21,928 nucleotides of DNA from a virus (Duplodnaviria > Heunggongvirae > Uroviricota > Caudoviricetes). The DNA lies in IMG/VR virus record IMGVR_UViG_2651869749_000015; one strand, written 5' to 3'. Made by a program: the position numbers and the translations under genes. Below are positions 386 through 19,581 of the stretch, one piece after another. The notes under the pieces were generated by a model, which was given only the letters and a program-made list of their open reading frames with translations, was not told the DNA's origin and did not search any database. Positions within the stretch are counted from its first letter, which is position 1, and every line of letters starts with the position of its first letter.

Positions 386-1609
386 ATGGCGCTGTCTGAT
401 GCGTGGTTGCGTTCAGTTGTTGGAAAGGAACGTGATAAGGTTTTGGTTAAATCCGATCGTGATGGTCTGTCTGTCAGAGTATCACCGAAAGGTCGCGTAG
501 TGTTCCAATATCGTTATCAATGGGCAGGGAAAGGTGAGCGTCTTGATATCGGAACTTACCCGGCAACTGGATTAAAAGAGGCCAGAGAAGAAGTTATCCG
601 TCTCCGTGGTGAACTCGAGTCAAACCGCAATCCACGATTGGTCAAGCAGGCAGAAAAACGCAAAGCTACTGAAGCCATGACTGTAGAGTCTGTGATCCGT
701 GCTTGGTATGAAGCATATTGTGTAAAAAATAAAAAAGGTGCTGAGCAGATACTCCGCTCATTTGAACTGCACCTGTTCTCTAAAATCGGGAGTATCCCTC
801 ACGATGCAGCTACATTGCATGATTGGTTAGAGGTCTTGGAGCCTCTTAGCACTAAGACTCCAGCAATAGCTGACCGATTGCTAATTAACGCAAAGCAGGC
901 CCATGTCTGGGCGTATAAGAGAAAGCTCATTGAAACTCGCCCGCTGTCGGATATCACAGGTAAAGATATGGATATCCGTAAAGGTCAGAAGAAACGGTTT
1001 CTGACACATGATGAAATTAAAATCCTTTATGCTGCGATCGATGGTTCTCGAATGGTTCCTAAATACCGGGCCTTCATTAAACTATTGTTGCATTTTGGCT
1101 GCCGTAGTTCAGAGCTAATTACCGCTAGGGTGGACGATTTTGATTTCATTAATAAGGTATGGACTGTACCGCCAGAACGACATAAGACAGGGGAGATAAC
1201 AGGCGAACCACTAAAGCGGCCCATTATTGGGCCGGTTGAAGAGCTTATAAAATACGTTATCTCTATGAACAACGGTTCCGATATGCTTTTTACTAAGGAA
1301 GGAAGCAGGGAGCCAGTTGGTCGGACATCATTGCAGTCGCTGCCTTACAATTTAATGCAGTTCGCATGGCGACGTTTGGGGTATCAATTCCCTCATTGGT
1401 CTCTTCATGATTTGAGGCGAACAGCACGAACAAACTTTTCTGATCTTACTGCGCCTCATATTGCAGAAATTATGCTTGGTCATAAGTTGCCAGGGGTATG
1501 GCAGGTTTATGACAAGAGCGATTATCTAGAAGAACAGCGTAAAGCCTACCAGGTATGGTGGGAGAGGGTTGAATTGATAGTTGCTTGTATTAGCTCAGAC
1601 CCCAACTGA
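386..1609 (+). CDS. int: Tyrosine site-specific integrase (P4-like family with N-terminal arm-binding domain)
   Basis: 407 aa ORF. Catalytic signature residues are visible: R in FGCRSSEL, H-x-x-R in HDLRRTART, H in LGHKLPG and Y in VYDKSDY. It sits directly beside the prfC junction. SD-like AGGTGA lies 3 nt upstream of the ATG. Confidence 0.92.
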   Translation: MALSDAWLRSVVGKERDKVLVKSDRDGLSVRVSPKGRVVFQYRYQWAGKGERLDIGTYPATGLKEAREEVIRLRGELESNRNPRLVKQAEKRKATEAMTVESVIRAWYEAYCVKNKKGAEQILRSFELHLFSKIGSIPHDAATLHDWLEVLEPLSTKTPAIADRLLINAKQAHVWAYKRKLIETRPLSDITGKDMDIRKGQKKRFLTHDEIKILYAAIDGSRMVPKYRAFIKLLLHFGCRSSELITARVDDFDFINKVWTVPPERHKTGEITGEPLKRPIIGPVEELIKYVISMNNGSDMLFTKEGSREPVGRTSLQSLPYNLMQFAWRRLGYQFPHWSLHDLRRTARTNFSDLTAPHIAEIMLGHKLPGVWQVYDKSDYLEEQRKAYQVWWERVELIVACISSDPN

Positions 1610-1880: not shown

Positions 1881-1908
1881 GCGCCTTGAATGCAAGGCGC
1901 TATTTATC
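1881..1908. terminator. GC-rich hairpin between the convergent 3' ends of int and the cargo operon (possible terminator)
   Basis: GCGCCTT-gaatgc-AAGGCGC (7 bp stem, 6 nt loop) at 1881-1900, followed by TATTTAT on the + strand. The T-run is weak on the minus strand, so strand assignment is uncertain. Confidence 0.3.
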
Positions 1909-2401
1909 AAGATAGTCTATTCAGATCAGTATTAGGTGTGCTTCTTTTTGATGCAAAGATGGATTTGAATCTTTTTGAGTAACTATCAAAAAACCATTTT
2001 GTATAATTACCTTCAATTTCCTCTAATATTGAATACTTCATCTCATGAAGTTCATTTTTATAATCACACTTTTTGCTTAACAAGTCTAAAGGTGTTGATC
2101 TGATAGATGACAACTGTTCATCACATAATAATTTCTTACCAATCCTTTGTGATAAATGAGACAGCTGCATTTCAATTAATGAGACACTGGAGGCTAAAAA
2201 ATTATCCAGCTCTAATTCTTTAGTATCTCTAGAAGAGAGCTTATCTAAAACATTATCAAAAAGAGATTCTATTTGCTGACAGATTTTATCCTTTTGCCTT
2301 GAAATATCATTTCGCTTGAATGCTCTATTATTGAAATAAGACGCAACAAGCCAACCAATTATAGCAATCACAATACTTGTATAATTAACCTCTTCCTGCA
2401 T
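1907..2401 (-). CDS. Small single-pass membrane protein of unknown function (third gene of the cargo operon; candidate effector)
   Basis: ORF with ATG at 2401 (GTG at 2404 one codon upstream). Hydrophobic helix YTSIVIAIIGWLVASYF near the N-terminus, followed by a polar, charged region. Its start overlaps the stop of the upstream gene by 17 nt. Low GC. Confidence 0.6.
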   Translation of the reverse strand: MQEEVNYTSIVIAIIGWLVASYFNNRAFKRNDISRQKDKICQQIESLFDNVLDKLSSRDTKELELDNFLASSVSLIEMQLSHLSQRIGKKLLCDEQLSSIRSTPLDLLSKKCDYKNELHEMKYSILEEIEGNYTKWFFDSYSKRFKSIFASKRSTPNTDLNRLS

Positions 2402-2717
2402 CACTCTCTGCCTTATTCAATCGTTCATCAATCAAGGTCTCAATACTCTTAATATCTTTATGAGTATAAGTTAGTTTTTTCTTAAGTTCGCTTAATGTGT
2501 AGCCTTCTACTCGGATCAAGCCACCAAACGCTTCATCAATAAATGAACGCCCATAACGGTTATATCCAGTCAACTCAACATGAACTAAATCATACTCTTT
2601 GAGAAAGCCTGCCAGATATTTGCGAAAGTTTTCCCCACAGCCTGCCCCATCGTCTGGATAGCGCCCGTAAGGCTTACTGTTGAAGTCTTTGATAACATTG
2701 ATGTTTTTAGTCTTCAT
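2385..2717 (-). CDS. Small STAS-like protein (DUF4325-type, anti-sigma-antagonist-like fold) - putative partner of the adjacent kinase
   Basis: 110 aa. The segment DLVHVELTGYNRYGRSFIDEAFGGLIRVEG matches the pattern I recall for DUF4325/STAS-like proteins (V-x-L-D/E-F/L-x-G-V, then SF-x-DE-x-F-G-x-L). Its ATG overlaps the stop of the upstream ATPase gene (2707-2717). Assignment is from memory, not an HMM hit. Confidence 0.6.
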   Translation of the reverse strand: MKTKNINVIKDFNSKPYGRYPDDGAGCGENFRKYLAGFLKEYDLVHVELTGYNRYGRSFIDEAFGGLIRVEGYTLSELKKKLTYTHKDIKSIETLIDERLNKAESDAGRG

Positions 2718-3816
2718 AGCTGACCTTGATGTTCCACTGAATTAAAGTACCTGGTACTTTATGAGTTAACTCATTAATTTTATCACCTTTCTTATTAGAA
2801 AGCTTGAACATACCTAAATTACTGTAAATCCAAAGGTTTCCATGTTCATTATTTAGTACTAGAGCTTTAATACTCTTACTTCCTTGACCATGTTTATCAT
2901 TGGCTGTACCGGTTACGTCTCCAATCATAGAAATTGCTATTTTTACTGCATCAGAAACAATACCAACTTTTACTTTAGAGCGCTCTTTATAACCTAAACC
3001 TATTCTCTCAAGTTCTTCGTTAACCGCAACCTTTAGATCTGGATATTTTGATTTGAGCGTACTCATAAACCATGTCTTTTGCATTACAGTTTCAGGTATA
3101 CCAACACCTTCATCATATATAGCAAGATACAGCTGGTCATGAATTACGTGACATGCAAGCCACCATCGTTTCTCATCATTATTTTTATGCGGATAGGCGT
3201 GTAAACCAACATTATTTATTGCTTCCTGAACAGCATCTGCATATGTATGTTCTGTTTCAGGTTTCATCTTGTTTTTATAAATTTCTTTCTGGATGAAATC
3301 TATAATCTCATCTCTATATTCTCCTCCTACCCCGCTAATAATGGGCAAGTTTTCAACGTTTTCGAAGACAGGTTTTAATTTTTCGCCCCGACATAAGGCG
3401 ACAAGCCCCGAGTCTCTTAAAAGCTGATTGACTTTAAAATCTGTTGAAAATAATAATCTGTACGATAAACCTTTACGAATTGAAGTTTCAACACTGGCAT
3501 AAAGTATTACTAATGCTGCCATTTTTATTGTTTTTGTATTTGTAAAATCTAAATATAATCTCTCATCAGGATTGTATTTTTTATTCCTGACGTGATTTAT
3601 CGAGTGTAGAGAGTGCGCAAAAAAATTAGGCTTATCTGGTGAATATATTGAAAACTCAGATGGAAACCGAATAAAGTTATTATCTTTTTTCTTTTGAGAT
3701 TTTTTTTGTTGACGAAACTGCGAATACTCTTTCCCTTGACGGGAAACACTTCGCTGCCATCTTTTAAAAGCCAGCCTAATTCTTACACTTTTTTCCTTAT
3801 TGGTCTTGTTTTCCAT
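2707..3816 (-). CDS. GHKL-superfamily ATPase / RsbW-SpoIIAB-like serine kinase domain protein with a basic N-terminal tail
   Basis: 369 aa. Bergerat-fold motifs in the C-terminal half: N-box QEAINNVGLHAY (residues ~197-208), G1 box IYDEGVGIP (D235-G239; confirmed as gatgaaggtgttggt on the minus strand at 3100-3114), G2-like RIGLGY, and C-terminal GTLIQWNIKV. Start ATG at 3816 is preceded by SD AGGAGA. First ~45 residues are very K/R/Q-rich. Confidence 0.75.
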   Translation of the reverse strand: MENKTNKEKSVRIRLAFKRWQRSVSRQGKEYSQFRQQKKSQKKKDNNFIRFPSEFSIYSPDKPNFFAHSLHSINHVRNKKYNPDERLYLDFTNTKTIKMAALVILYASVETSIRKGLSYRLLFSTDFKVNQLLRDSGLVALCRGEKLKPVFENVENLPIISGVGGEYRDEIIDFIQKEIYKNKMKPETEHTYADAVQEAINNVGLHAYPHKNNDEKRWWLACHVIHDQLYLAIYDEGVGIPETVMQKTWFMSTLKSKYPDLKVAVNEELERIGLGYKERSKVKVGIVSDAVKIAISMIGDVTGTANDKHGQGSKSIKALVLNNEHGNLWIYSNLGMFKLSNKKGDKINELTHKVPGTLIQWNIKVSYED

Positions 3817-9527: not shown

Positions 9528-10220
9528 TTAATTGTGTCGCTTAAGGGTTTGTGACTGACTGATTAAGACCTTTCCAAAGACCATAAACCGATGTTCGTTT
9601 TCGCTGGTAATTCCCCATTCGCGGTAAATCTGATTATCAGAAATTACCAGCAGTTTATCAGGTATCATTTGCAGTCGTTTGACGTAAATTTTATCATCAA
9701 AACCAAATACATATATACCATCCCCATCAAACTGATTGATACTGATATCAACGAAGATGAGATCTCCTGGCTCAATGGTTGGACACATACTGTCCCCACG
9801 AACGTTGATAACTTTAATGTGATTTGCTGGTCGTCCACCAAACATCGATACAGCATTATCAGTTCTGTATTCAATGGCATGAATCACATCAATGACATCA
9901 CCGCCCTGGATAAGGCCATTTCCCGCACTGGCACTGACATCCAGCATTTCAATACGGAATACATCCTTCACCTGCGCAACATCCTCACTAATACTGTTTT
10001 TACATACAGTATTACTTTTGAGGTCTGAGGTAAAGAGATCAGCAATATCAACACCTAAGCTCCTGGCAATATTACTCAGGGCTTGTTCAGTGAATTGTTT
10101 CTGCTTACCTGTTTCGAGGCGCGAGATATTCGCCGCATCCACTCCTATTGCTTCAGCGAGATCGGCGATTTTCATGTTCTTCGCCTGGCGAAGTTGTCTG
10201 ACTCGATTTCCTATGTTCAT
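9528..10220 (-). CDS. cI: CI-type prophage repressor, LexA-like autocleavable (N-terminal HTH plus C-terminal S24 peptidase domain)
   Basis: 230 aa. HTH in MKIADLAEAIGVDAANISRLETGK; A-G cleavage-site-like SASAGNG; Ser nucleophile in VRGDSMCPT and Lys in IYVKRLQ. Divergent to cro. Confidence 0.9.
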   Translation of the reverse strand: MNIGNRVRQLRQAKNMKIADLAEAIGVDAANISRLETGKQKQFTEQALSNIARSLGVDIADLFTSDLKSNTVCKNSISEDVAQVKDVFRIEMLDVSASAGNGLIQGGDVIDVIHAIEYRTDNAVSMFGGRPANHIKVINVRGDSMCPTIEPGDLIFVDISINQFDGDGIYVFGFDDKIYVKRLQMIPDKLLVISDNQIYREWGITSENEHRFMVFGKVLISQSQTLKRHN

Positions 10221-10317: not shown

Positions 10318-10578
10318 ATGCAATCACCATTACGGAATGTGCGTAAGGCGCACGGATTTACTTTGCAGCATGTTGCTGCGGGCGTTCAGGTCAATCCAGC
10401 GACGCTGAGTCGTATTGAAAGACTGGAACAAATTCCATCTATCGAGCTTGCAGAACGTCTGGCCAATTTTTTTAAGGGAGAAATCAGCGAAATGCAGATT
10501 CTCTATCCTGCACGCTTTCAATCTAGTCAAAACCGGAATGAGTTAAAACCACAGGAACAGGAGGTAAGCCGTGGGTAA
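10318..10578 (+). CDS. cro: Cro-like HTH transcriptional regulator
   Basis: 86 aa, XRE-type HTH (FTLQHVAAGVQVNPATLSRIERLEQ). GGAGG SD. Divergent from cI across the operator region. Confidence 0.8.
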   Translation: MQSPLRNVRKAHGFTLQHVAAGVQVNPATLSRIERLEQIPSIELAERLANFFKGEISEMQILYPARFQSSQNRNELKPQEQEVSRG

Positions 10579-11122
10579 GCATCACTGGAAAGTGGAAAAA
10601 CAGCCTGAGTGGTACGTGAAAGCTGTCAGAAAAACTATCGCGGTGTTGCCGGGGGGTTACGCTGAAGCTGCTGAGTGGCTGGATGTAACAGAGAACGCTT
10701 TATTCAACCGCCTTCGTGCCGATGGCGATCAGTTTTTTCCGTTGGGATGGGCAATGGTTTTACAGCGTGCGGCTGGTACTCACCACATTGCGGATGCTGT
10801 CGCACAGTCTGCTGGTGGGGTGTTTGTATCACTTCCAGAAATTGAGGAAGTAGAGAACGCCGATATAAACCAGCGCCTGCTGGAAGTCATCGAACAGATC
10901 GGGAGTTACTCAAAGCAGATTCGTTCGGCAATCGAAGATGGGGTAGTGGAGCCACACGAGCAGACAGCAATTAATGATGAGTTGTATCTGTCAATTTCGA
11001 AGCTCCAGGAGCATGCAGCACTGGTCTACAAAATCTTCTGCGCTCCAGAAAAGAGTAACGCCCGCGAGTGTGCAGCTCCGGGCGTCGTGGCGTTTTGTGT
11101 CTGTGGAGAAACTAACGCATGA
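10571..11122 (+). CDS. CII-like regulatory protein (phage 186 CII / CP76-like family)
   Basis: 183 aa. GTG start with AGGAGG upstream, overlapping the cro stop. The pattern ...ALFNRLRADGDQFFPLGWAMVLQRAAG... resembles the 186-CII/CP76-type regulators as I recall them. Confidence 0.5.
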   Translation: MGKHHWKVEKQPEWYVKAVRKTIAVLPGGYAEAAEWLDVTENALFNRLRADGDQFFPLGWAMVLQRAAGTHHIADAVAQSAGGVFVSLPEIEEVENADINQRLLEVIEQIGSYSKQIRSAIEDGVVEPHEQTAINDELYLSISKLQEHAALVYKIFCAPEKSNARECAAPGVVAFCVCGETNA

Positions 11123-12279
11123 ACAGTTTAACGGCAAATAACCGTTTGTCGCAACAGCTGGTGGTCAGTGTCGCTGCACACCTGTTGTTACGGCATGAAT
11201 GCAGATTACCAAATCACCTGGCTGTAAGTAACCACAGAGAACTTTACCTGACTGTGGGGGGCGAGTTGTGCAGGAACTTAACCGCTGGTTTCGTGACGGA
11301 AGAGGACTTTATGTTCATGTTATTCGTTGGGAGCCAGAAACACAGCGCGTTATCTATCTTCGCAAAGACTACCCGCATGAGTGCTTTAGTCCTTTGTGGA
11401 AATTCAGGCGTGATTTTGTTGAGTGTGAAGGACCACCAGCATATTGATTCTGCAATTCCGGGACGTTACACTGTTCAGGCACCTTATAAAGCGGGTGCCG
11501 GGATTGGCGTCCTGAAATTGTCAACGGCGATGTATGACGCGCCAGCGTCTTTTTTATCGTCCGCATTTGCTCACATCCAGATTATGGTGGGCTGGGCGGG
11601 GGCACCGAAAGGTGCGCCGGTCTCCGTTGACGCCGGTTACGCCAACCCCGTCCAGTTCACCACCAGTGAAATTGGCGTTTCCGGTGGTGGAAGTTTTTCA
11701 CTGTCAACGGAGGCTGCCATCATGGCTACGATCCAAGCCCTCACTCAACCTGAAATCACCATTGACAACGGCCAGGCCGTTACCACTTCTTTGGCTGTTG
11801 CCAACTTCTTCTCCAAGCGTCACGACGATGTGCTGAAAAAGATCCGCACTCTGGATTGTTCCCCTGAGTTTTGTGCCCGCAATTTTGCGGAGACATCGAT
11901 TTCGGTAAATCAACCGAACGGTGGTACACGCAAGCTCCCTTGCTATCAAATCACACGAGACGGTTTTGCGTTTCTTGCTATGGGTTTCACGGGTAAACGT
12001 GCTGCCCGATTCAAAGAGGCATACATCAATGCCTTTAACCAGATGGAAAAACTGCTTTCAAAGCCATCCACGCTGAGCGATGCCGCAGATAACGCCAGCG
12101 TGCTTTACTCCCACCTGTCGGTAATCCACAAGGTCTGGCTGCAGCAGCTTTATCCTATGTTGGCAAAAGCTGAATCTCCGCTGGCTGTTAGCTTATATGA
12201 TTATATTAATGATGCTTCGGCGCTGGCCTGCCTCATAAATTTGTCGCTGAACCCTTCAGAGGTAAGGGGGCGCAAATGA
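11119..12279 (+). CDS. Rha-family phage regulatory protein (Rha domain in the C-terminal half; N-terminal ~200 codons of the long ORF are doubtful)
   Basis: The pRha signature ITIDNGQAVTTSLAVANFFSKRHDDVLKKIRTL...YQITRDGFAFLAMGFTGKRAARFKEAYINAFNQMEKLL starts at an internal ATG at 11722 with GGAGG 9 nt upstream. The upstream part of the 386-codon ORF has an off-frame-like composition (see findings). Confidence 0.6.
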   Translation: MNSLTANNRLSQQLVVSVAAHLLLRHECRLPNHLAVSNHRELYLTVGGELCRNLTAGFVTEEDFMFMLFVGSQKHSALSIFAKTTRMSALVLCGNSGVILLSVKDHQHIDSAIPGRYTVQAPYKAGAGIGVLKLSTAMYDAPASFLSSAFAHIQIMVGWAGAPKGAPVSVDAGYANPVQFTTSEIGVSGGGSFSLSTEAAIMATIQALTQPEITIDNGQAVTTSLAVANFFSKRHDDVLKKIRTLDCSPEFCARNFAETSISVNQPNGGTRKLPCYQITRDGFAFLAMGFTGKRAARFKEAYINAFNQMEKLLSKPSTLSDAADNASVLYSHLSVIHKVWLQQLYPMLAKAESPLAVSLYDYINDASALACLINLSLNPSEVRGRK

Positions 12280-12500
12280 TCCGGAATATTTTCAAACGGT
12301 TTACCAATCAGACTTTCCGTTGTCCTCGTCCGGGTCAGTGGTACACCACACCTGCAGGGCATGTTCTACGTGTTAGCCTGGTTGACCGTGAATGTCAGAA
12401 GGTGATTTGTGAACCGCTGGGCCGTAATTACCGCGTCAGTATGCCGCTTATAGCCTTTCGCTCCGGAAAAAACATGAAGCATCTCGGAGGTGCTGCATGA
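12276..12500 (+). CDS. Hypothetical small phage protein
   Basis: 74 aa ORF, translationally coupled on both sides (ATGA overlaps with the Rha stop and with the next gene's start). Confidence 0.5.
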   Translation: MIRNIFKRFTNQTFRCPRPGQWYTTPAGHVLRVSLVDRECQKVICEPLGRNYRVSMPLIAFRSGKNMKHLGGAA

Positions 12501-13315
12501 GTATGGAGCTGATGGTTAAAGCGATGAAAATTCGAGTGGGTAATCCATTGCGAAAACTGGTTCTGATCAAGCTGGCTGATAATGCCAGCGATCAGGGGGA
12601 GTGCTGGCCCAGCTACCAGCATATTGCTGACCAGTGCGAGATTAGCAAACGTTCTGTGATGAATCATATTGCGGCCCTTTGTGAGTCCGGGCTGGTAAAA
12701 AAAGTCACCCGGAAAGGTGAAAAAGGTAACTCAAGTAATATCTATCTCCTTCATCTGGATGGTGCAGGAGATTCACTAGGGGGTAGTGCAAATAATTCAC
12801 TATCTGGCGCAGCAAATTCACCAGGTAGTGCAGGAGTTGCACCAGGGGGTAGTGCAGGAGATTCACCCAGAACCAGTCACTCTTTTGAACCAGTCAAAGA
12901 ACCAGTCAATGAACCAATAGCTGTTGGTGCATCAGTTGATGAGTCTGTGCGAGTTCGTTCAAACCGACCGGAATACTCTCCGGAGTTTGAGCAGGCATGG
13001 CTGGCATATCCCAAACGTGCTGGTGGCAATTCAAAATCTGCAGCCTTCAAAGCCTGGAAAGCCCGTTTGAATGAGGGGGTAAACCCCGAAACCATGCTGG
13101 AAGGTGTGAAACGCTACGCGGGCTGGGTATCTGCGATGGGTAACAGCGGCACACAATTTGTGAAACAGGCTGTCACGTTCTTTGGTCCGGATCGTCATTT
13201 CGAAGAATCCTGGGAAGTTCCTGCGGTATCTGCAGCCAGACGTGAGGACCCGTACTTCAAAGCCAGTTACGACAACGTGGACTACAGCCAGATCCCGGCA
13301 GGATTCAGGGGGTGA
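12497..13315 (+). CDS. Replication initiation protein (O-like: N-terminal winged-helix domain, Gly/Ser/Ala linker encoded by iterons, C-terminal domain)
   Basis: 272 aa. N-terminal wHTH-like LVLIKLADNASDQGECWPSYQHIADQCEISKRSVMNHIAALCESGLVKK. An internal tandem DNA repeat array encodes a G/S/A-rich linker, as in lambda O. GGAGG SD. Confidence 0.6.
   Translation: MSMELMVKAMKIRVGNPLRKLVLIKLADNASDQGECWPSYQHIADQCEISKRSVMNHIAALCESGLVKKVTRKGEKGNSSNIYLLHLDGAGDSLGGSANNSLSGAANSPGSAGVAPGGSAGDSPRTSHSFEPVKEPVNEPIAVGASVDESVRVRSNRPEYSPEFEQAWLAYPKRAGGNSKSAAFKAWKARLNEGVNPETMLEGVKRYAGWVSAMGNSGTQFVKQAVTFFGPDRHFEESWEVPAVSAARREDPYFKASYDNVDYSQIPAGFRG
12760..12866. repeat. Iteron-like direct repeats inside the replication initiator gene (putative origin of replication)
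   Basis: Five copies of a ~17 bp unit T(A/G)GTGCAGGAGATTCAC and variants, ending at 12776, 12800, 12821, 12842 and 12866 (period 21-24 bp), followed by three GAACCAGTCA repeats at 12869-12910. Confidence 0.5.
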
Positions 13316-13806
13316 TCATGAGTCTTTTGAATGAAGTTCAGAAATTCATTGAAGCCCATCCGGGGTGTACTTCCGGAGACATTGCGGATGCTTTTGCAGG
13401 TTACTCACGGCAGCGCGTTCTGCAGTATGCAAGCAAGTTACGTCAGAGTGGGCGTGTGGCTCACCGTTGTGAAGGAGATACACGCAGACATTTCCCGCGC
13501 CTGACTGAGAGAGCGCAGGAGCTGGAACCACAACCAGTTCGTGAAACCAGACCTGTGCGCAATTTCTATGTCGGCACTAACGACCCGCGGGTGATTTTGT
13601 GCCTGACCCGCCAGGCGGAAGAACTGGAGTCAAGGGGCTTATACCGTCGTGCTGCAACCGTGTGGATGGCGGCATTCCGTGAAAGCCACTCCCAGCCAGA
13701 ACGAAACAATTTTCTGGCACGTCGTGAGCGGTGCTTACGGAAAAGCAGCAAGCGCGCTGCATCGGGTGAAGAGTGGTATCTGTCAGGGAATTACGTGGGG
13801 GCTTAA
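13312..13806 (+). CDS. PerC-family-like transcriptional regulator with N-terminal wHTH-like region
   Basis: 164 aa. AEELESRGLYRRAATVWMAAF resembles the GLWRRAA...W motif I associate with PerC/Pch-type prophage regulators (from memory). Coupled to neighbouring genes. Confidence 0.4.
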   Translation: MIMSLLNEVQKFIEAHPGCTSGDIADAFAGYSRQRVLQYASKLRQSGRVAHRCEGDTRRHFPRLTERAQELEPQPVRETRPVRNFYVGTNDPRVILCLTRQAEELESRGLYRRAATVWMAAFRESHSQPERNNFLARRERCLRKSSKRAASGEEWYLSGNYVGA

Positions 13807-14459
13807 TGAGTAATAAATATTGCCGGGCGCTGGTGGAACTGCGGAACAAACCAGCCCATGAACTGAAGGAAGTGGGCGATCAGTGGCGCACGCCGGATAA
13901 CATTTTCTGGGGAATTAACACCCTGTTTGGCCCGTTTGTCCTGGATCTGTTTACTGACGGTGATAACGCCAAATGTACCGCGTATTACACGGCGGAAGAC
14001 AACGCGCTGGCGCATGACTGGTCAGAACGTCTTGCGGAGCTTAAAGGTGCTGCCTTTGGTAATCCCCCATACAGCCGCGCCAGTCAGCATGAGGGGCAAT
14101 ACATCACCGGCATGCGTTACATCATGAAACATGCCAGTGCCATGCGTGATAAAGGCGGGCGCTATGTTTTCCTGATCAAAGCTGCCACCTGCGAAGTGTG
14201 GTGGCCGGAAGATGCAGATCATATTGCTTTTATTCGCGGGCGTATTGGTTTTGAACTGCCTGCCTGGTTTATCCCGAAAGATGAGAAGCAGGTGCCGACA
14301 GGCGCTTTCTTCGCTGGTGCTATTGCTGTTTTCGACAAGACCTGGAAGGGACCGGCAATCAGCTACATCGGGCGCGATGAACTTGAGGCATGTGGTGAGG
14401 CGTTTCTGGCGCAGGTTCGCCAGCAGGCAGAAAAACTGGTCAGGGAGATGGCGGCATGA
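13806..14459 (+). CDS. Phage-type DNA N6-adenine methyltransferase (Dam-like)
   Basis: NPPY catalytic motif (AFGNPPYS). Probable start is the ATG at 13806, overlapping the upstream stop as TAATG; the six-frame ORF begins at 13773. Confidence 0.75.
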   Translation: MSNKYCRALVELRNKPAHELKEVGDQWRTPDNIFWGINTLFGPFVLDLFTDGDNAKCTAYYTAEDNALAHDWSERLAELKGAAFGNPPYSRASQHEGQYITGMRYIMKHASAMRDKGGRYVFLIKAATCEVWWPEDADHIAFIRGRIGFELPAWFIPKDEKQVPTGAFFAGAIAVFDKTWKGPAISYIGRDELEACGEAFLAQVRQQAEKLVREMAA

Positions 14460-16994: not shown

Positions 16995-17011
16995 TTTTGT
17001 GGAGAAAGTTG

Positions 17012-17377
17012 ATGCGTGATATTCAAATGGTTCTTGAACGTTGGGGGGCATGGGTGGCAAATAATCACGAGGATGTCACCTGGTCGTCTATTGCTGCAGG
17101 ATTTAAAGGACTAATCCCTTCAAAAGTAAAATCCCGCCCGCAATGTTGTGACGATGACGCGATGATCATTTGTGGATGCATGGCTCGCCTGAAAAAGAAC
17201 AACAGCGATTTGCACGATTTATTAGTGGATTATTATGTAGGTGGTATGACTTTTATGGCGCTTGCCCGTAAACATGGGCGTTCTGATTGCTGGGTTGGGC
17301 GTTTATTGCAAAAGGCTGAAGGTGTAGTTGATGGCATGTTAATGATGTTAGAAATTGAGCTAGAGATGGATCGTTAG
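17012..17377 (+). CDS. Q: Late-gene antitermination protein Q (phage-82/DLP12 QuuD-like family)
   Basis: [36 protein letters not shown]...[16 protein letters not shown] matches the Q-antiterminator family as I recall it. ATG at 17012 with GGAG 8 nt upstream; the six-frame ORF starts at a TTG at 16997. Confidence 0.8.
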
Positions 17378-17419
17378 AAGACCTCTTATTGAGGGGGTAA
17401 TTGAATCAGTTTAATGTGT

Positions 17420-17455
17420 GGGGAGTCGATTTATTCTCCCCATTTTATTTAATTT
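17420..17455 (+). terminator. Intrinsic terminator at the end of the early-right operon, downstream of Q
   Basis: GGGGAG-tcgatttatt-CTCCCC hairpin (17420-17441) followed by ATTTTATTTAATTT. Confidence 0.5.
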
Positions 17456-17457
17456 AT

Positions 17458-17904
17458 TTAAGGTTTTAATTCATCAAGACGTTGTTGGATAGTGTTTTTG
17501 CTTGCGTTGTCTGTTATAGACATTTGTTGTACTTGCCCCATTGCCATTTGAGTTTCCATCCACATATCGGCCCACACTTTTGTATCGTTATTAACTTGAG
17601 CGATAGTAAATCTGACTTTTGATACCGGGGTTGTTGAATAGGCATTGCCGATTAACATTTGTCCAAAAACAGCAGAGCCGCCTTCCAGTTCTTTACCACA
17701 TATAACACTGCTGTTATCCGCGTTGTAAATTATCAACCCTCTACTATTGCAGTAATTCACAAGGGCATCTTTGACTTTATCTTTTGTCGTATTTTGATAA
17801 ACCCCCTCAGGTTTTCCTGATTGAGTTTTCTTTATCAATGGTACGGAAGAAGTACAACCTGAAATGATAGTTGCGCTAAGTAATAGTACAGTCATTTTAT
17901 TCAT
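17458..17904 (-). CDS. Lipoprotein of unknown function (AT-rich moron, opposite strand to flanking operons)
   Basis: 148 aa. Signal peptide with lipobox (MNKMTVLLLSATIISGC). About 35% GC by eye versus ~50% backbone. Sits between Q and the putative late promoter. Confidence 0.7.
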   Translation of the reverse strand: MNKMTVLLLSATIISGCTSSVPLIKKTQSGKPEGVYQNTTKDKVKDALVNYCNSRGLIIYNADNSSVICGKELEGGSAVFGQMLIGNAYSTTPVSKVRFTIAQVNNDTKVWADMWMETQMAMGQVQQMSITDNASKNTIQQRLDELKP

Positions 17905-17969
17905 GTTTCTTATCCATTGTTAAGGGCATACCCACACAATTATTTTTATTGGAGATGAATAATCAACCG

Positions 17970-17997
17970 TTTACAATCGTAAAAAATCAAATATGCT
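17970..17997 (+). promoter_or_regulatory. Candidate late promoter pR'
   Basis: TTTACA (17970-17975), 16 nt, TATGCT (17992-17997), downstream of Q and upstream of the late/lysis genes. Confidence 0.3.
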
Positions 17998-18030
17998 GTT
18001 AAGAGTGGTTACTTCGCCACACAACTTAAA

Positions 18031-18052
18031 CCCGCCGCTGAGCGGTTTTTTT
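18031..18052 (+). terminator. Candidate promoter-proximal terminator (tR'-like), implying a short 6S-like leader transcript
   Basis: CCGCT-G-AGCGG inverted repeat (18035-18045) followed by seven T (18046-18052), about 45 nt downstream of the candidate pR' start. Confidence 0.3.
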
Positions 18053-18150
18053 GTACCTGTAAACCTGGTGCAGTACAGTAAACACGCTGGTGGTCGTGAA
18101 TACTGACTTTTTATCTTGCTGGCTTTTTAGACAAGAGTTATTGGTATGTC

Positions 18151-18378
18151 ATGTTAACCAGAAGGGAAAAAGACATGCTAAAACAGCAAGATATGACAGA
18201 AACCGCCGCCGCAGTCCTTCATTTCTTACCTGCTGACAAGTGGGTAACGCCACGCATGATGACGAGAACTACCGGAGTAAGCGAAGCCCGGTGCCAGTTA
18301 ATACTGACTCAGTTAGTTCTGGCGGGTCTGGCGAAGGATAACGGCGGGTACGGGAATAAATTCAGACGCTGCCAGTAA
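18151..18378 (+). CDS. Hypothetical small protein, first ORF after the late promoter
   Basis: 75 aa ORF; an alternative ATG at 18175 has AGGGA upstream. Possible HTH-like segment VTPRMMTRTTGVSEARCQLILTQLVLAGLA. Confidence 0.4.
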   Translation: MLTRREKDMLKQQDMTETAAAVLHFLPADKWVTPRMMTRTTGVSEARCQLILTQLVLAGLAKDNGGYGNKFRRCQ

Positions 18379-18528
18379 TGGCGGTTTCCTGCTGTGAAAA
18401 TGGGCGGCTGGTGGGTGTTGGTAGCACCTGCCAGCCATTCGCTCATGCTTACTGGTCACAAGCGAACCACGGCCCACTGCTTTAGCGCAAAAGCAGAGTG
18501 AGCCTACCAGAGTTACGCTTACTGATCC

Positions 18529-19581
18529 ATGAAAAATACTGTGAAAATAAACAGTGTTGATTTAATCAACGCTGATTGCCTGCATTTTATTCAGTCCCTG
18601 CCTGATGATTCCATTGACCTGATTGTTACCGATCCGCCGTACTTCAAGGTGAAACCCAACGGCTGGGACAATCAGTGGAAAGGGGACGAAGATTACCTTA
18701 AGTGGCTGGACCACTGTCTGGCCCAGTTCTGGCGGGTGTTAAAACCTGCCGGAAGCCTTTACCTGTTCTGTGGGCATCGCCTGGCATCTGATATTGAGAT
18801 CATGATGCGTGAACGTTTCAACGTGCTTAACCATATCATCTGGGCGAAGCCGTCCGGACGTTGGAATGGGTGTAATAAAGAAAGTCTGCGTGCATATTTT
18901 CCAGCCACAGAGCGCGTTCTGTTTGCTGAACATTACCAGGGGCCATATCGCGGCAAAAGTGACGGCTATGCGGCAAAAGAAAGGGAACTCAAACAGCACA
19001 TAATGGCACCGCTGATTTCGTATTTCAGGGATGCTCGTGCCGAACTGGGTATAACGGCAAAACAAATTGCCGAAGCCACAGGTAAGAAAAATATGGTTTC
19101 CCACTGGTTTGGTGCCAGTCAGTGGCAGTTGCCGAATGAGGCTGACTATCGGAAGTTACAGGCACTGTTTTCCCGTATAGCGGCAGAGAAGTTTCAGGAA
19201 CAACAACTGGAACAACCACACCACCAGCTGGTGGCATCTTATGATTCACTGAATCGCAAATATTCTGAATTGCTGGATGAGTTTAAATCTCTCCGGCGCT
19301 ATTTCTCCGTATCAGTCTCCGTGCCTTATACCGATGTCTGGATGCATAAACCCGTTCAGTTCTACCCGGGTAAACATCCGTGTGAGAAACCTGCGGATAT
19401 GCTCCGGCAAATAATCAATGCCAGTAGTCGACCTGGTGATCTGGTTGCTGATTTTTTTATGGGATCCGGTTCCACAATAAAAGCAGCAATGGCGCTGGGG
19501 CGTCGGGCCTTAGGTGTTGAGCTTGAGTCAGAGCGGTTTAACCAGACAGTGAAAGAGATAAACGAGCTGGTGGGGAAATAA
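18529..19581 (+). CDS. DNA methyltransferase, beta-class N6-adenine/N4-cytosine type (orphan, no restriction enzyme partner seen)
   Basis: 350 aa. Motif IV DPPY (LIVTDPPYF) near the N-terminus and motif I FxGSGS (DFFMGSGSTIKAA) near the C-terminus. Confidence 0.8.
   Translation: MKNTVKINSVDLINADCLHFIQSLPDDSIDLIVTDPPYFKVKPNGWDNQWKGDEDYLKWLDHCLAQFWRVLKPAGSLYLFCGHRLASDIEIMMRERFNVLNHIIWAKPSGRWNGCNKESLRAYFPATERVLFAEHYQGPYRGKSDGYAAKERELKQHIMAPLISYFRDARAELGITAKQIAEATGKKNMVSHWFGASQWQLPNEADYRKLQALFSRIAAEKFQEQQLEQPHHQLVASYDSLNRKYSELLDEFKSLRRYFSVSVSVPYTDVWMHKPVQFYPGKHPCEKPADMLRQIINASSRPGDLVADFFMGSGSTIKAAMALGRRALGVELESERFNQTVKEINELVGK

Follow-up and report, generated by a model that had tools for sequence, protein, structure and literature searches.

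Where does a lambdoid prophage begin to replicate when its early region encodes a replication initiator with no recognizable helicase or helicase loader beside it? The question is raised by the Caudoviricetes virus record IMGVR_UViG_2651869749_000015 of IMG/VR, of which we analyzed a stretch of 21,928 nucleotides (nt), hereafter the window, to which all coordinates refer. This DNA covers the early region of a lambdoid prophage. Its replication initiator gene contains, in the part that encodes the linker between two protein domains, five iterons followed by a conserved box (Table 1). Sequence comparisons suggest that the segment 12762–12916 is probably the theta replication origin of the prophage, lying within its own initiator gene and acting by the mechanism proposed below. 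The narrower reading, an origin with iterons bound by the initiator, appears very likely on the same grounds.

An iteron array in the linker-coding part of the initiator gene

The initiator protein comprises an N-terminal winged-helix domain, a linker encoded by the repeats, a helical C-terminal domain, and a disordered tail. Residues 17–67 match HTH_36 (PF13730) in Pfam above the cut-off (E = 1.8e-11), and a weak DnaD_N match (E = 3.6e-5) lies below the curated cut-off. The PHROG family phrog_270, "replication initiation protein," matches the initiator end to end (amino acids (aa) 3–271, E = 1.7e-88). Replication proteins annotated in SfV (orf39), mEp460, cdtI, Stx2c- and Stx2a-converting phages, and others match the gene at 98–99% identity. 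By sequence, the protein belongs to the large HTH_36/DnaD_N-like class of phage initiators, for which annotators' labels vary between "replication protein O," "primosomal protein I" and "helix-turn-helix protein."

Five dyad-symmetric units of 15 bp, G[T/C]GCA-N5-T[T/G]CAC, lie in the gene at start-to-start spacings of 24, 21, 21, and 24 bp. The ends of the unit, GTGCA and TGCAC or TTCAC, flank a variable 5-bp spacer. A first-pass annotation of this DNA had described five repeats of ~17 bp at 21–24 bp spacing; the copy number and the spacing stand, whereas the length does not, the repeated core being 15 bp with dyad ends. The degenerate pattern is confined to the array and has no further plus-strand match in the window. 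When up to three mismatches to the consensus GTGCAGGAGATTCAC were allowed, six matches were found in the window against an expected 0.52 ± 0.70, and none of 100 shuffles reached six; two of the six lie outside the array (11268 and 13469), and the array copy at 12786 has four mismatches. The third iteron begins with GCG instead of GTG, a variant common to only 7 of 118 relatives, and GTGCAGCAAATTCAC is found in 108 of the 118.

The iterons and the GAACCAGTCA repeats that follow them together encode aa 89–140, a linker rich in Gly, Ser, Ala, Asn, and Pro. Both the position of the repeats inside the initiator gene and the Gly/Ser/Ala-rich nature of the encoded linker had thus been read correctly, and the tandem-repeat check that had been proposed bears out the arrays, each of which was detected independently by Tandem Repeats Finder. 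Single-strand DNA folding of 12755–12925 indicated no special hairpin (z = 0.48). One iteron-like site, GTGAAGGAGATACAC at 13469–13483, lies ~600 bp downstream within the PerC-like gene and has two mismatches to the consensus. It is unchanged in 90 of 115 relatives, which could be due either to chance conservation of coding sequence or to a role in binding at a distance from the array.

TABLE 1 Features of the window, with the initiator gene, its putative origin elements and neighboring genes.
Feature	Position	Strand	Basis or remark
Integrase	386-1609		
cI-like repressor	9528-10220	-	
cro	10318-10578		
CII/CP76	10571-11122		
Rha/Ash protein open reading frame (ORF)	11119-12279		
74-aa ORF upstream of initiator	12276-12500		Translationally coupled
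Replication initiator gene, 272 aa	12497..13315	+	ORF, translation, Pfam, PHROG
Coding region of N-terminal winged-helix (HTH_36/DnaD_N-like) domain	12497..12757	+	Pfam; iteron binding predicted
Iteron 1, GTGCAGGAGATTCAC	12762..12776	+	
Iteron 2, GTGCAAATAATTCAC	12786..12800	+	
Iteron 3, GCGCAGCAAATTCAC	12807..12821	+	Minority variant; GTGCAG in most relatives
Iteron 4, GTGCAGGAGTTGCAC	12828..12842	+	Most symmetric copy; fits pattern on both strands
Iteron 5, GTGCAGGAGATTCAC	12852..12866	+	Abuts conserved box
Conserved box, AGAACCAGTCACTCTTTTGAACCAGTCAAAGAACC(AGTCAATGAACCA)	12869..12916	+	GAACC(AGTCA) units at 12870, 12887, 12899, 12911
Folded C-terminal helical domain (aa ~160-240)	12974..13216	+	AlphaFold2, family 0; "solo" type without phage-encoded helicase/loader partner
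C-terminal nonapeptide SQIPAGFRG (aa 264-272)	13286..13312	+	Compare SQIPPGFRG of host DnaT
PerC-family (Pch-like) transcriptional activator gene, 164 aa	13312-13806		Overlaps initiator stop codon
Dam	13773-14459		
LexA-like protein, 108 aa	14456-14782		LexA DNA-binding domain only, without S24 peptidase domain; adjoins Dam and RusA
Q	16997-17377		
N6_N4 DNA methylase, 350 aa	18529-19581		Second methylase of the window besides Dam

Iterons and recognition helices in divergent relatives

An earlier scan of viral contigs with the whole protein gave only near-identical copies, which are uninformative for covariation. Divergent relatives (50–70% identity) were found by tblastn with the N-terminal 89 residues only, in Vibrio, Salmonella, Klebsiella, Pectobacterium, Stenotrophomonas, Psychrobacter, and E. 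coli phages. Twelve of these were taken and, together with loci found via the conserved box, they make up 31 array types. A different dyad-symmetric array occupies the same place, directly after the winged-helix domain, in 11 of the 12 divergent relatives; examples of its units are GTGAC-N5-GTCAC, GTGTCAGAGAGACAC, TGTGCC-N7-GCACA, and GGGGCAGGAGCTGCCCC. Over the 31 array types, the copy number ranges from 1 to 7 with a mode of 4–5, and the spacing is 21 bp (35 times), 24 bp (32 times), 23 bp (nine times) or 22 bp (eight times), with a few wider gaps. The last iteron ends 2–8 nt before the box in all 31. The first-pass annotation had held that an origin here would be refuted by a lack of conservation of the repeats in homologous initiator genes; two to seven dyad repeats are present at the same junction in 30 of the 31 array types.

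The linker peptides are unrelated between phages, being Pro-rich, Gly-rich or Ser/Asp-rich, and copy number, spacing, and position are kept. In several relatives, neighboring iterons are 22 or 23 bp apart, so that they fall into different reading frames and encode different peptides. These spacings, together with the first GAACCAGTCA copy of the window being out of frame with the other two, suggest that selection acts on the DNA and not on a repeated peptide. Some arrays have an inverted central spacer between half-sites that are retained. Near-identical genes differ by whole iterons: cdtI (L082 2501-3385) has eight copies as the result of an in-frame 66-bp duplication of three units, locus L106 has seven, and loci L030 and L100 have four.

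The recognition helix of the initiator is placed at ~aa 50–58 (SKRSVMNHI); from relative to relative, its motif changes together with the half-site of the iterons. Helices of the form RSV[M/I]xH accompany the half-sites GTG[C/A]A..T[T/G]CAC, MNH going with GTGCA..TTCAC. Helices ending in ..MRH are found with GTGAC..GTCAC, CSKSAV[R/K]xH with T[A/G]TGCC..GGCAC, and DRSTVR[K/R]H with GTAGGC.., while the pairing of STVK[V/S]H with GGGGC[A/G]G.. recurs in prophages of Pseudomonas and of E. coli/Salmonella. Judged from these sequences, such covariation is what the relation of a reading head to its operator predicts.

A box constrained at the DNA level

In nearly all relatives, the last iteron is directly followed by a box of ~35 bp, CCAGAACCAGTCACTCTTTTGAACCAGTCAA(A/T)GAACC, which encodes RTSHSFEPV(K/N)EP. 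The family is defined here by an array that ends 2–8 nt before AGAACCAGTCACTCTTTNGAACCAGTCA in the frame RTSHSFEPV; in the window, the iterons end at 12866 and the exact box starts at 12869. The three repeats that the first-pass annotation had seen after the iterons are exact copies of GAACCAGTCA at 12870, 12887, and 12899. This sequence is absent elsewhere in the window, and an additional GAACCA lies at 12911. The first copy is read as aGA ACC AGT CAc (R-T-S-H), and the second and third as GAA CCA GTC Aaa (E-P-V-K).

The comparison of the 12 box codons drew on nine relatives that had been selected for the similarity of their N-terminal protein part and that encode the canonical box peptide. 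Where two relatives had the same amino acid, they also used the same codon in 338 of 355 cases (95%) in the box, as compared to 837 of 2011 (42%) in the N-terminal domain, the pairs not being independent. Each of R, T, S, H, S, E, P, and V in the box is encoded by a single codon throughout. The exact 28-mer of the box was found in at least 120 viral contigs and in 45 species-representative genomes, with genera that include Pseudomonas, Xenorhabdus, Photorhabdus, Photobacterium, Shewanella, Haemophilus, Providencia, Proteus, Erwinia, Pantoea, and Microbulbifer. It is unchanged while the G+C content at third codon positions (GC3) of the adjacent N-terminal domain spans 0.26 to 0.89. Among more distant relatives, the drifted box of Psychrobacter Y8A contains GAACCTATCAAT in three copies, that of Pseudomonas LESphi3 four GAACC units at intervals of 11–13 bp, and that of Arsenophonus GAATCAGTCA..GAACCAGTCA..GAACC; the Pasteurella box differs by one base. 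Given the invariance at codon level, the very different GC3 of the hosts and the retention of phased GAACC units in distant relatives, these sequences indicate that the box is under DNA-level constraint. The box of phage mEp554 (L092 2501-3487) is degenerate, AATCAGTCA..AACCAGTAA.

The box is a local AT maximum (59–62% AT) and the adjoining last iteron is GC-rich (37–44% AT; means of 35 diverse contexts). On its top strand in the window, 21 A stand against 10 T. By analogy with the AT-rich segment of lambda and the 13-mers of oriC and plasmid origins, the box could be an unwinding or helicase-entry element, a role to which we would give even chances.

Varied C-terminal domains and the missing loader

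At least eight unrelated families of C-terminal domain occur in fusion with the unit of N-terminal domain, iterons, and box, and the family type tracks the next gene downstream. Family 1 is followed by a Phage_lambda_P gene, family 2 by Phage_lambda_P or a Toprim-DnaB primase-helicase, and families 3 and 6 by a DnaB-like helicase. Next to family 5 stands an IstB/DnaC-like ATPase, or an ORF of ~229 aa that resembles lambda P by eye, and next to family 4 a DUF968 gene. Family 0, the type found in the window and at 135 loci in all, has a PerC-like gene as its usual downstream neighbor (108 of the 135). The C-terminal domain of mEp554 resembles the one found paired with a DnaB-like helicase in BUCT709; mEp554 has a Bro-N/ANT gene next to its initiator and no adjacent helicase.

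Recombination between the halves of these genes is evident in individual phages. Phage SI8 has its N-terminal domain in common with phiXuzhou21, from which it differs in the C-terminal domain; with S137 it has the C-terminal domain in common, but neither the N-terminal domain nor the iterons. By sequence, both pairs are clear recombinants, and the box sits exactly at the mosaic junction of the front and back gene halves. In lambda, the front half of the initiator is origin-specific and its back half is partner-specific, a classical rule that the modular C-termini of the HTH_36 family appear to reproduce.

The initiator gene of the window is followed in order by PerC-like, Dam, LexA-like, RusA, KilA-N, DUF968, Q, second methylase, and lysis genes, so that, as already noted in the first-pass annotation, no helicase-loader gene follows. 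The wider search that it suggested gave the same answer, with no match to the P, DnaC or DnaB families among the 30 larger ORFs scanned from int to lysis. Since the C-terminal type tracks the partner gene, the absence of a loader is better read as a property of C-terminal type 0 than as a gap in annotation. The AlphaFold2 model of this domain has helices at aa 162–170, 180–193, 197–214, and 225–228, with a mean predicted local distance difference test score of 72.6. The domain has no significant fold match in the PDB, and a sequence search of the PDB with the whole initiator returned nothing meaningful.

A DnaT-like C-terminal tail

The initiator ends in ...DYSQIPAGFRG and E. coli DnaT in ...DSQIPPGFRG; only the last nine residues align in BLASTP. 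Among 120 listed DnaT ortholog clusters (71–100% identity), IPxGFRG occurs at or near the C-terminus of nearly every full-length tail, one tail reading IPPGLRG. The residue x varies in DnaT orthologs and, at the same position, in phage tails (A, T, E, and D). In other branches of the window-type C-terminal domain, the protein closes with an acidic-aromatic tip, for instance ..DYGQSDCNW or ..NLNF. The same 23-residue tail (REDPYFKASYDNVDYSQIPAGFRG) is found in phage SfII on a different initiator. In that protein, HTH_36 at the N-terminus is combined with a C-terminal domain resembling lambda O (E = 7e-26); its gene has other iterons and is followed by a PerC-like gene and no P gene.

Homology of the initiator to DnaT was considered and rejected: beyond the nine aligned residues the two proteins do not align, and the initiator has no DnaT_DNA_bind (PF17948) match. 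For the same reasons, the label "primosomal protein I" on some relatives is unsupported as a statement of homology, and the likeness is one of a short motif, not of proteins. On the evidence of these sequences, the tail may be a portable short linear motif that links "solo" initiators to the host loading machinery, a suggestion that we offer with reserve. The first-pass annotation had proposed that loading might depend on host factors or on the C-terminal domain, an idea that gains support from the DnaT-like motif. No function assigned to the C-terminal tail of DnaT was found in the literature consulted, where the step of DnaB/DnaC recruitment in replication restart is described as unknown (PMC13377028).

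Proposed mechanism and alternative explanations

Dimers of the winged-helix N-terminal domain would bind the five dyad iterons, which lie two helical turns apart and would therefore place the dimers on one face of the DNA, and would build a complex like the O-some of lambda. This nucleoprotein complex would stress the adjacent, moderately AT-rich box with its phased GAACC(AGTCA) units, where the duplex would open and the replicative helicase would enter. The phage encodes no P, DnaC-like or DnaB-like partner for this type of initiator, whose C-terminal domain and disordered tail (IPAGFRG) may therefore recruit host DnaB-DnaC directly, or PriA/PriB/DnaT, and so have host DnaB loaded; this is the least certain step. 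It is possible, though we would not favor it over its negation, that the box is a family-wide origin element (a site of duplex opening or helicase entry, or a target for a conserved host factor) and that the solo tail also plugs into host DnaB-DnaC or PriA/PriB/DnaT.

Replication slippage could have produced the repeats as a by-product of a low-complexity Gly/Ser/Ala linker, leaving the DNA without a function of its own. The stretch that they encode at aa 89–125 is indeed compositionally simple, and close relatives vary by in-frame steps of 21 or 66 bp to give 4, 7 or 8 copies. A peptide repeat, however, needs no dyad symmetry, yet each unit is dyad-symmetric. The spacings of 22 and 23 bp, the complete divergence of the peptides under a conserved copy number, spacing and position, and the covariation of half-sites with the recognition helix also speak against slippage, which we regard as largely refuted and highly improbable. 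The array might instead consist of initiator binding sites for autoregulation or copy control, as a roadblock, operator or handcuffing site, with the true origin elsewhere in the phage. Plasmid iterons often double as autoregulatory and copy-control sites, and the conserved iteron-like site 600 bp downstream would suit such a role. The layout is nevertheless that of the mapped origin of lambda and of the P22 origin annotated by similarity to it, an invariant box without peptide constraint is always attached to the array, and the array travels with the front half of the initiator through at least eight combinations of C-terminal domain and partner, as an origin-initiator pair should. The scans that bear on other origins in the window were pattern scans for the two motifs and a scan of 12000–13600. 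We consider a purely regulatory array unlikely.

A further alternative concerns the box only, whose nucleotide invariance could stem from a role or history as a recombination junction for swapping initiator halves and not from unwinding. Its position exactly at the mosaic boundary in phiXuzhou21/SI8 and S137/SI8, the joining of eight C-terminal families at it and its AT content of only ~60% are in keeping with this explanation. An exact box over GC3 values from 0.26 to 0.89, on the other hand, needs continuing purifying selection on the DNA, and phased GAACC units persist in the drifted boxes of LESphi3, Psychrobacter Y8A, and Arsenophonus. In P22, whose N-terminal domain is unrelated, the last iteron is followed by GAATCAGTCAAAC, and the equivalent segment of lambda is the established unwinding region. 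A junction role as the source of the invariance thus seems improbable to us, if less so than a regulatory array; recombination and unwinding roles of the box are compatible.

Several observations weigh against an origin of the proposed kind. Salmonella phage SI8 (L090 2501-3133, P22-like) keeps a single recognizable iteron, GGGGCAGGAGCTGAC, where its close relative phiXuzhou21 has three. The covariation between helix and iteron is confounded by their physical linkage. The AT content of the box is far below that of the AT-rich segment of lambda. Neither a DnaA box (up to one mismatch) nor an IHF consensus was found inside the origin segment or next to the box, the nearest DnaA-like sites being at 12716 and 13159. 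No experiment on any member of the HTH_36-initiator family was found in the literature. The replication proteins of the Eru types are reported as unstudied and the replication of Stx phages with such regions as uncharacterized, and iterons are not mentioned (PMC8951638).

Comparison with known origins

In lambda and P22, as in the window, the initiator gene itself carries dyad-symmetric iterons at intervals of about two helical turns, placed where the N-terminal domain meets the C-terminal one; in the window, the five units at 12762–12866 stand between HTH_36 (aa 17–67) and the C-terminal domain (aa ~160–240). A conserved, relatively AT-rich direct-repeat segment on the C-terminal side of the iterons is another common feature. 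Lambda (L215 1035-1170) and P22 (L214 2341-2485) share such a post-iteron box (ACAAAAGACA..ACAAAAGA), and the window has its own, far less AT-rich, at 12869–12916. The segment of lambda is its known unwinding region. The systems differ in that the N-terminal domain of the window protein is HTH_36/DnaD_N-like and not Phage_rep_O: lambda O and P22 gp18 match PF04492 (E = 6e-36 and 7e-38), whereas the window protein matches HTH_36 only and thus does not belong to the lambda O family. The window has five iterons with a 15-bp core as opposed to four of 18 bp in lambda, its box is unrelated in sequence to that of lambda, and neither a P gene (lambda) nor a DnaB-like gene 12 (P22) lies downstream. 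The likeness to lambda drawn in the first-pass annotation therefore holds for the architecture of variable iterons followed by a conserved direct-repeat box, but not for the ancestry of the DNA-binding domain. The GAATCAGTCAAAC of P22, right after its last iteron, resembles the GAACCAGTCAAAG unit of the HTH_36 family.

Origin repeats inside the gene of a winged-helix, DnaD_N-like origin-binding protein are known from SPP1 G38P/oriL and from the rep genes of the lactococcal phages Tuc2009 and TP901-1. In iteron plasmids, winged-helix initiators (RK2 TrfA, F RepE, and pPS10 RepA) bind direct iterons beside an unwinding element of short phased repeats, and host DnaB-DnaC is recruited without a plasmid-encoded loader. 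Their origins are intergenic and usually contain DnaA boxes, whereas the origin segment of the window is coding and has no DnaA box within it; the likeness drawn here is one of layout.

Members of the N-terminal domain family are also encoded on some ten circular "plasmids" of phage size from Arsenophonus nasoniae (H107-H116, 28–104 kb) and on E. coli and Salmonella records of 39–45 kb (H93 and H94), one of these records being listed with "rep_cluster_2302" in PLSDB. These records are possibly phage-plasmids or circularized phages that use the HTH_36 origin type. They were rejected as proof of replicon function, most being phage-sized circles and some larger.

Genomic context

The arrangement of the window, in which cI, cro, and cII are followed by a Rha/Ash protein and then by a helix-turn-helix protein, is that of Eru6, a replication-region type of Shiga-toxin phages (Fagerlund et al., 2022; PMC8951638), and the initiator gene has 98.8% nucleotide identity to that of the Eru6 representative Stx2a_WGPS2 (AP012537). 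Eru typing is purely based on gene content and assigns no origin (PMC8951638). Unlike the Eru6 Stx phages, the window lacks stx genes in the interval from Q to the lysis genes (16997–19581), which holds the methylase and small ORFs.

The 74-aa ORF upstream of the initiator was considered as a conserved small partner protein and rejected, as it is not homologous to the small ORFs upstream in relatives. No sigma-70-like promoter was found in 12200–13500, and a single terminator-like match, on the minus strand, is at chance level. Downstream, the 108-aa LexA-domain protein is one that cdtI encodes as well, there under the annotation of an autopeptidase. PerC/Pch homologs regulate virulence genes of the locus of enterocyte effacement in enteropathogenic and enterohaemorrhagic E. 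coli. Between the integrase and the early-left genes, three minus-strand ORFs at 1907–3816 encode proteins of 165, 110, and 369 aa. The 110-aa protein has a STAS-like DUF4325 domain and the 369-aa protein has no Pfam match; the trio resembles an accessory or moron cassette, possibly related to defense.

Implications for prophage replication

The repeats, very probably the replication origin of the prophage, are an element of an ordinary kind, built like the lambda ori in gene O but around an unrelated DNA-binding domain, and iterons in such a gene would be expected by a specialist. Less expected are the codon invariance of the box over host GC content, the pairing of C-terminal domains with partners and the DnaT-like tail. 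No description of the iterons or the box of the HTH_36 family was found in the literature, although an earlier one is possible as a key review on phage replication modules was not covered.

With this analysis, a concrete putative origin can be named for a replication module found very often among prophages of E. coli, Shigella, and Salmonella; cdtI, SfV, and Stx2a/Stx2c phages of the Eru6 type are examples. The efficiency of replication affects toxin gene dosage after induction. The family also offers a natural specificity table for winged-helix initiators, in which more than 30 iteron types can be set against recognition-helix variants and at least eight C-terminal domains against partner types. 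The box and the DnaT-like tail provide two hypotheses for how a phage without a loader may have host DnaB loaded. If the proposal for the tail is true, it would hint at a function of the conserved IPxGFRG motif in DnaT. The box, if its proposed role is true, would be an undescribed origin element common to many prophage origins of Gammaproteobacteria and echoed in P22.

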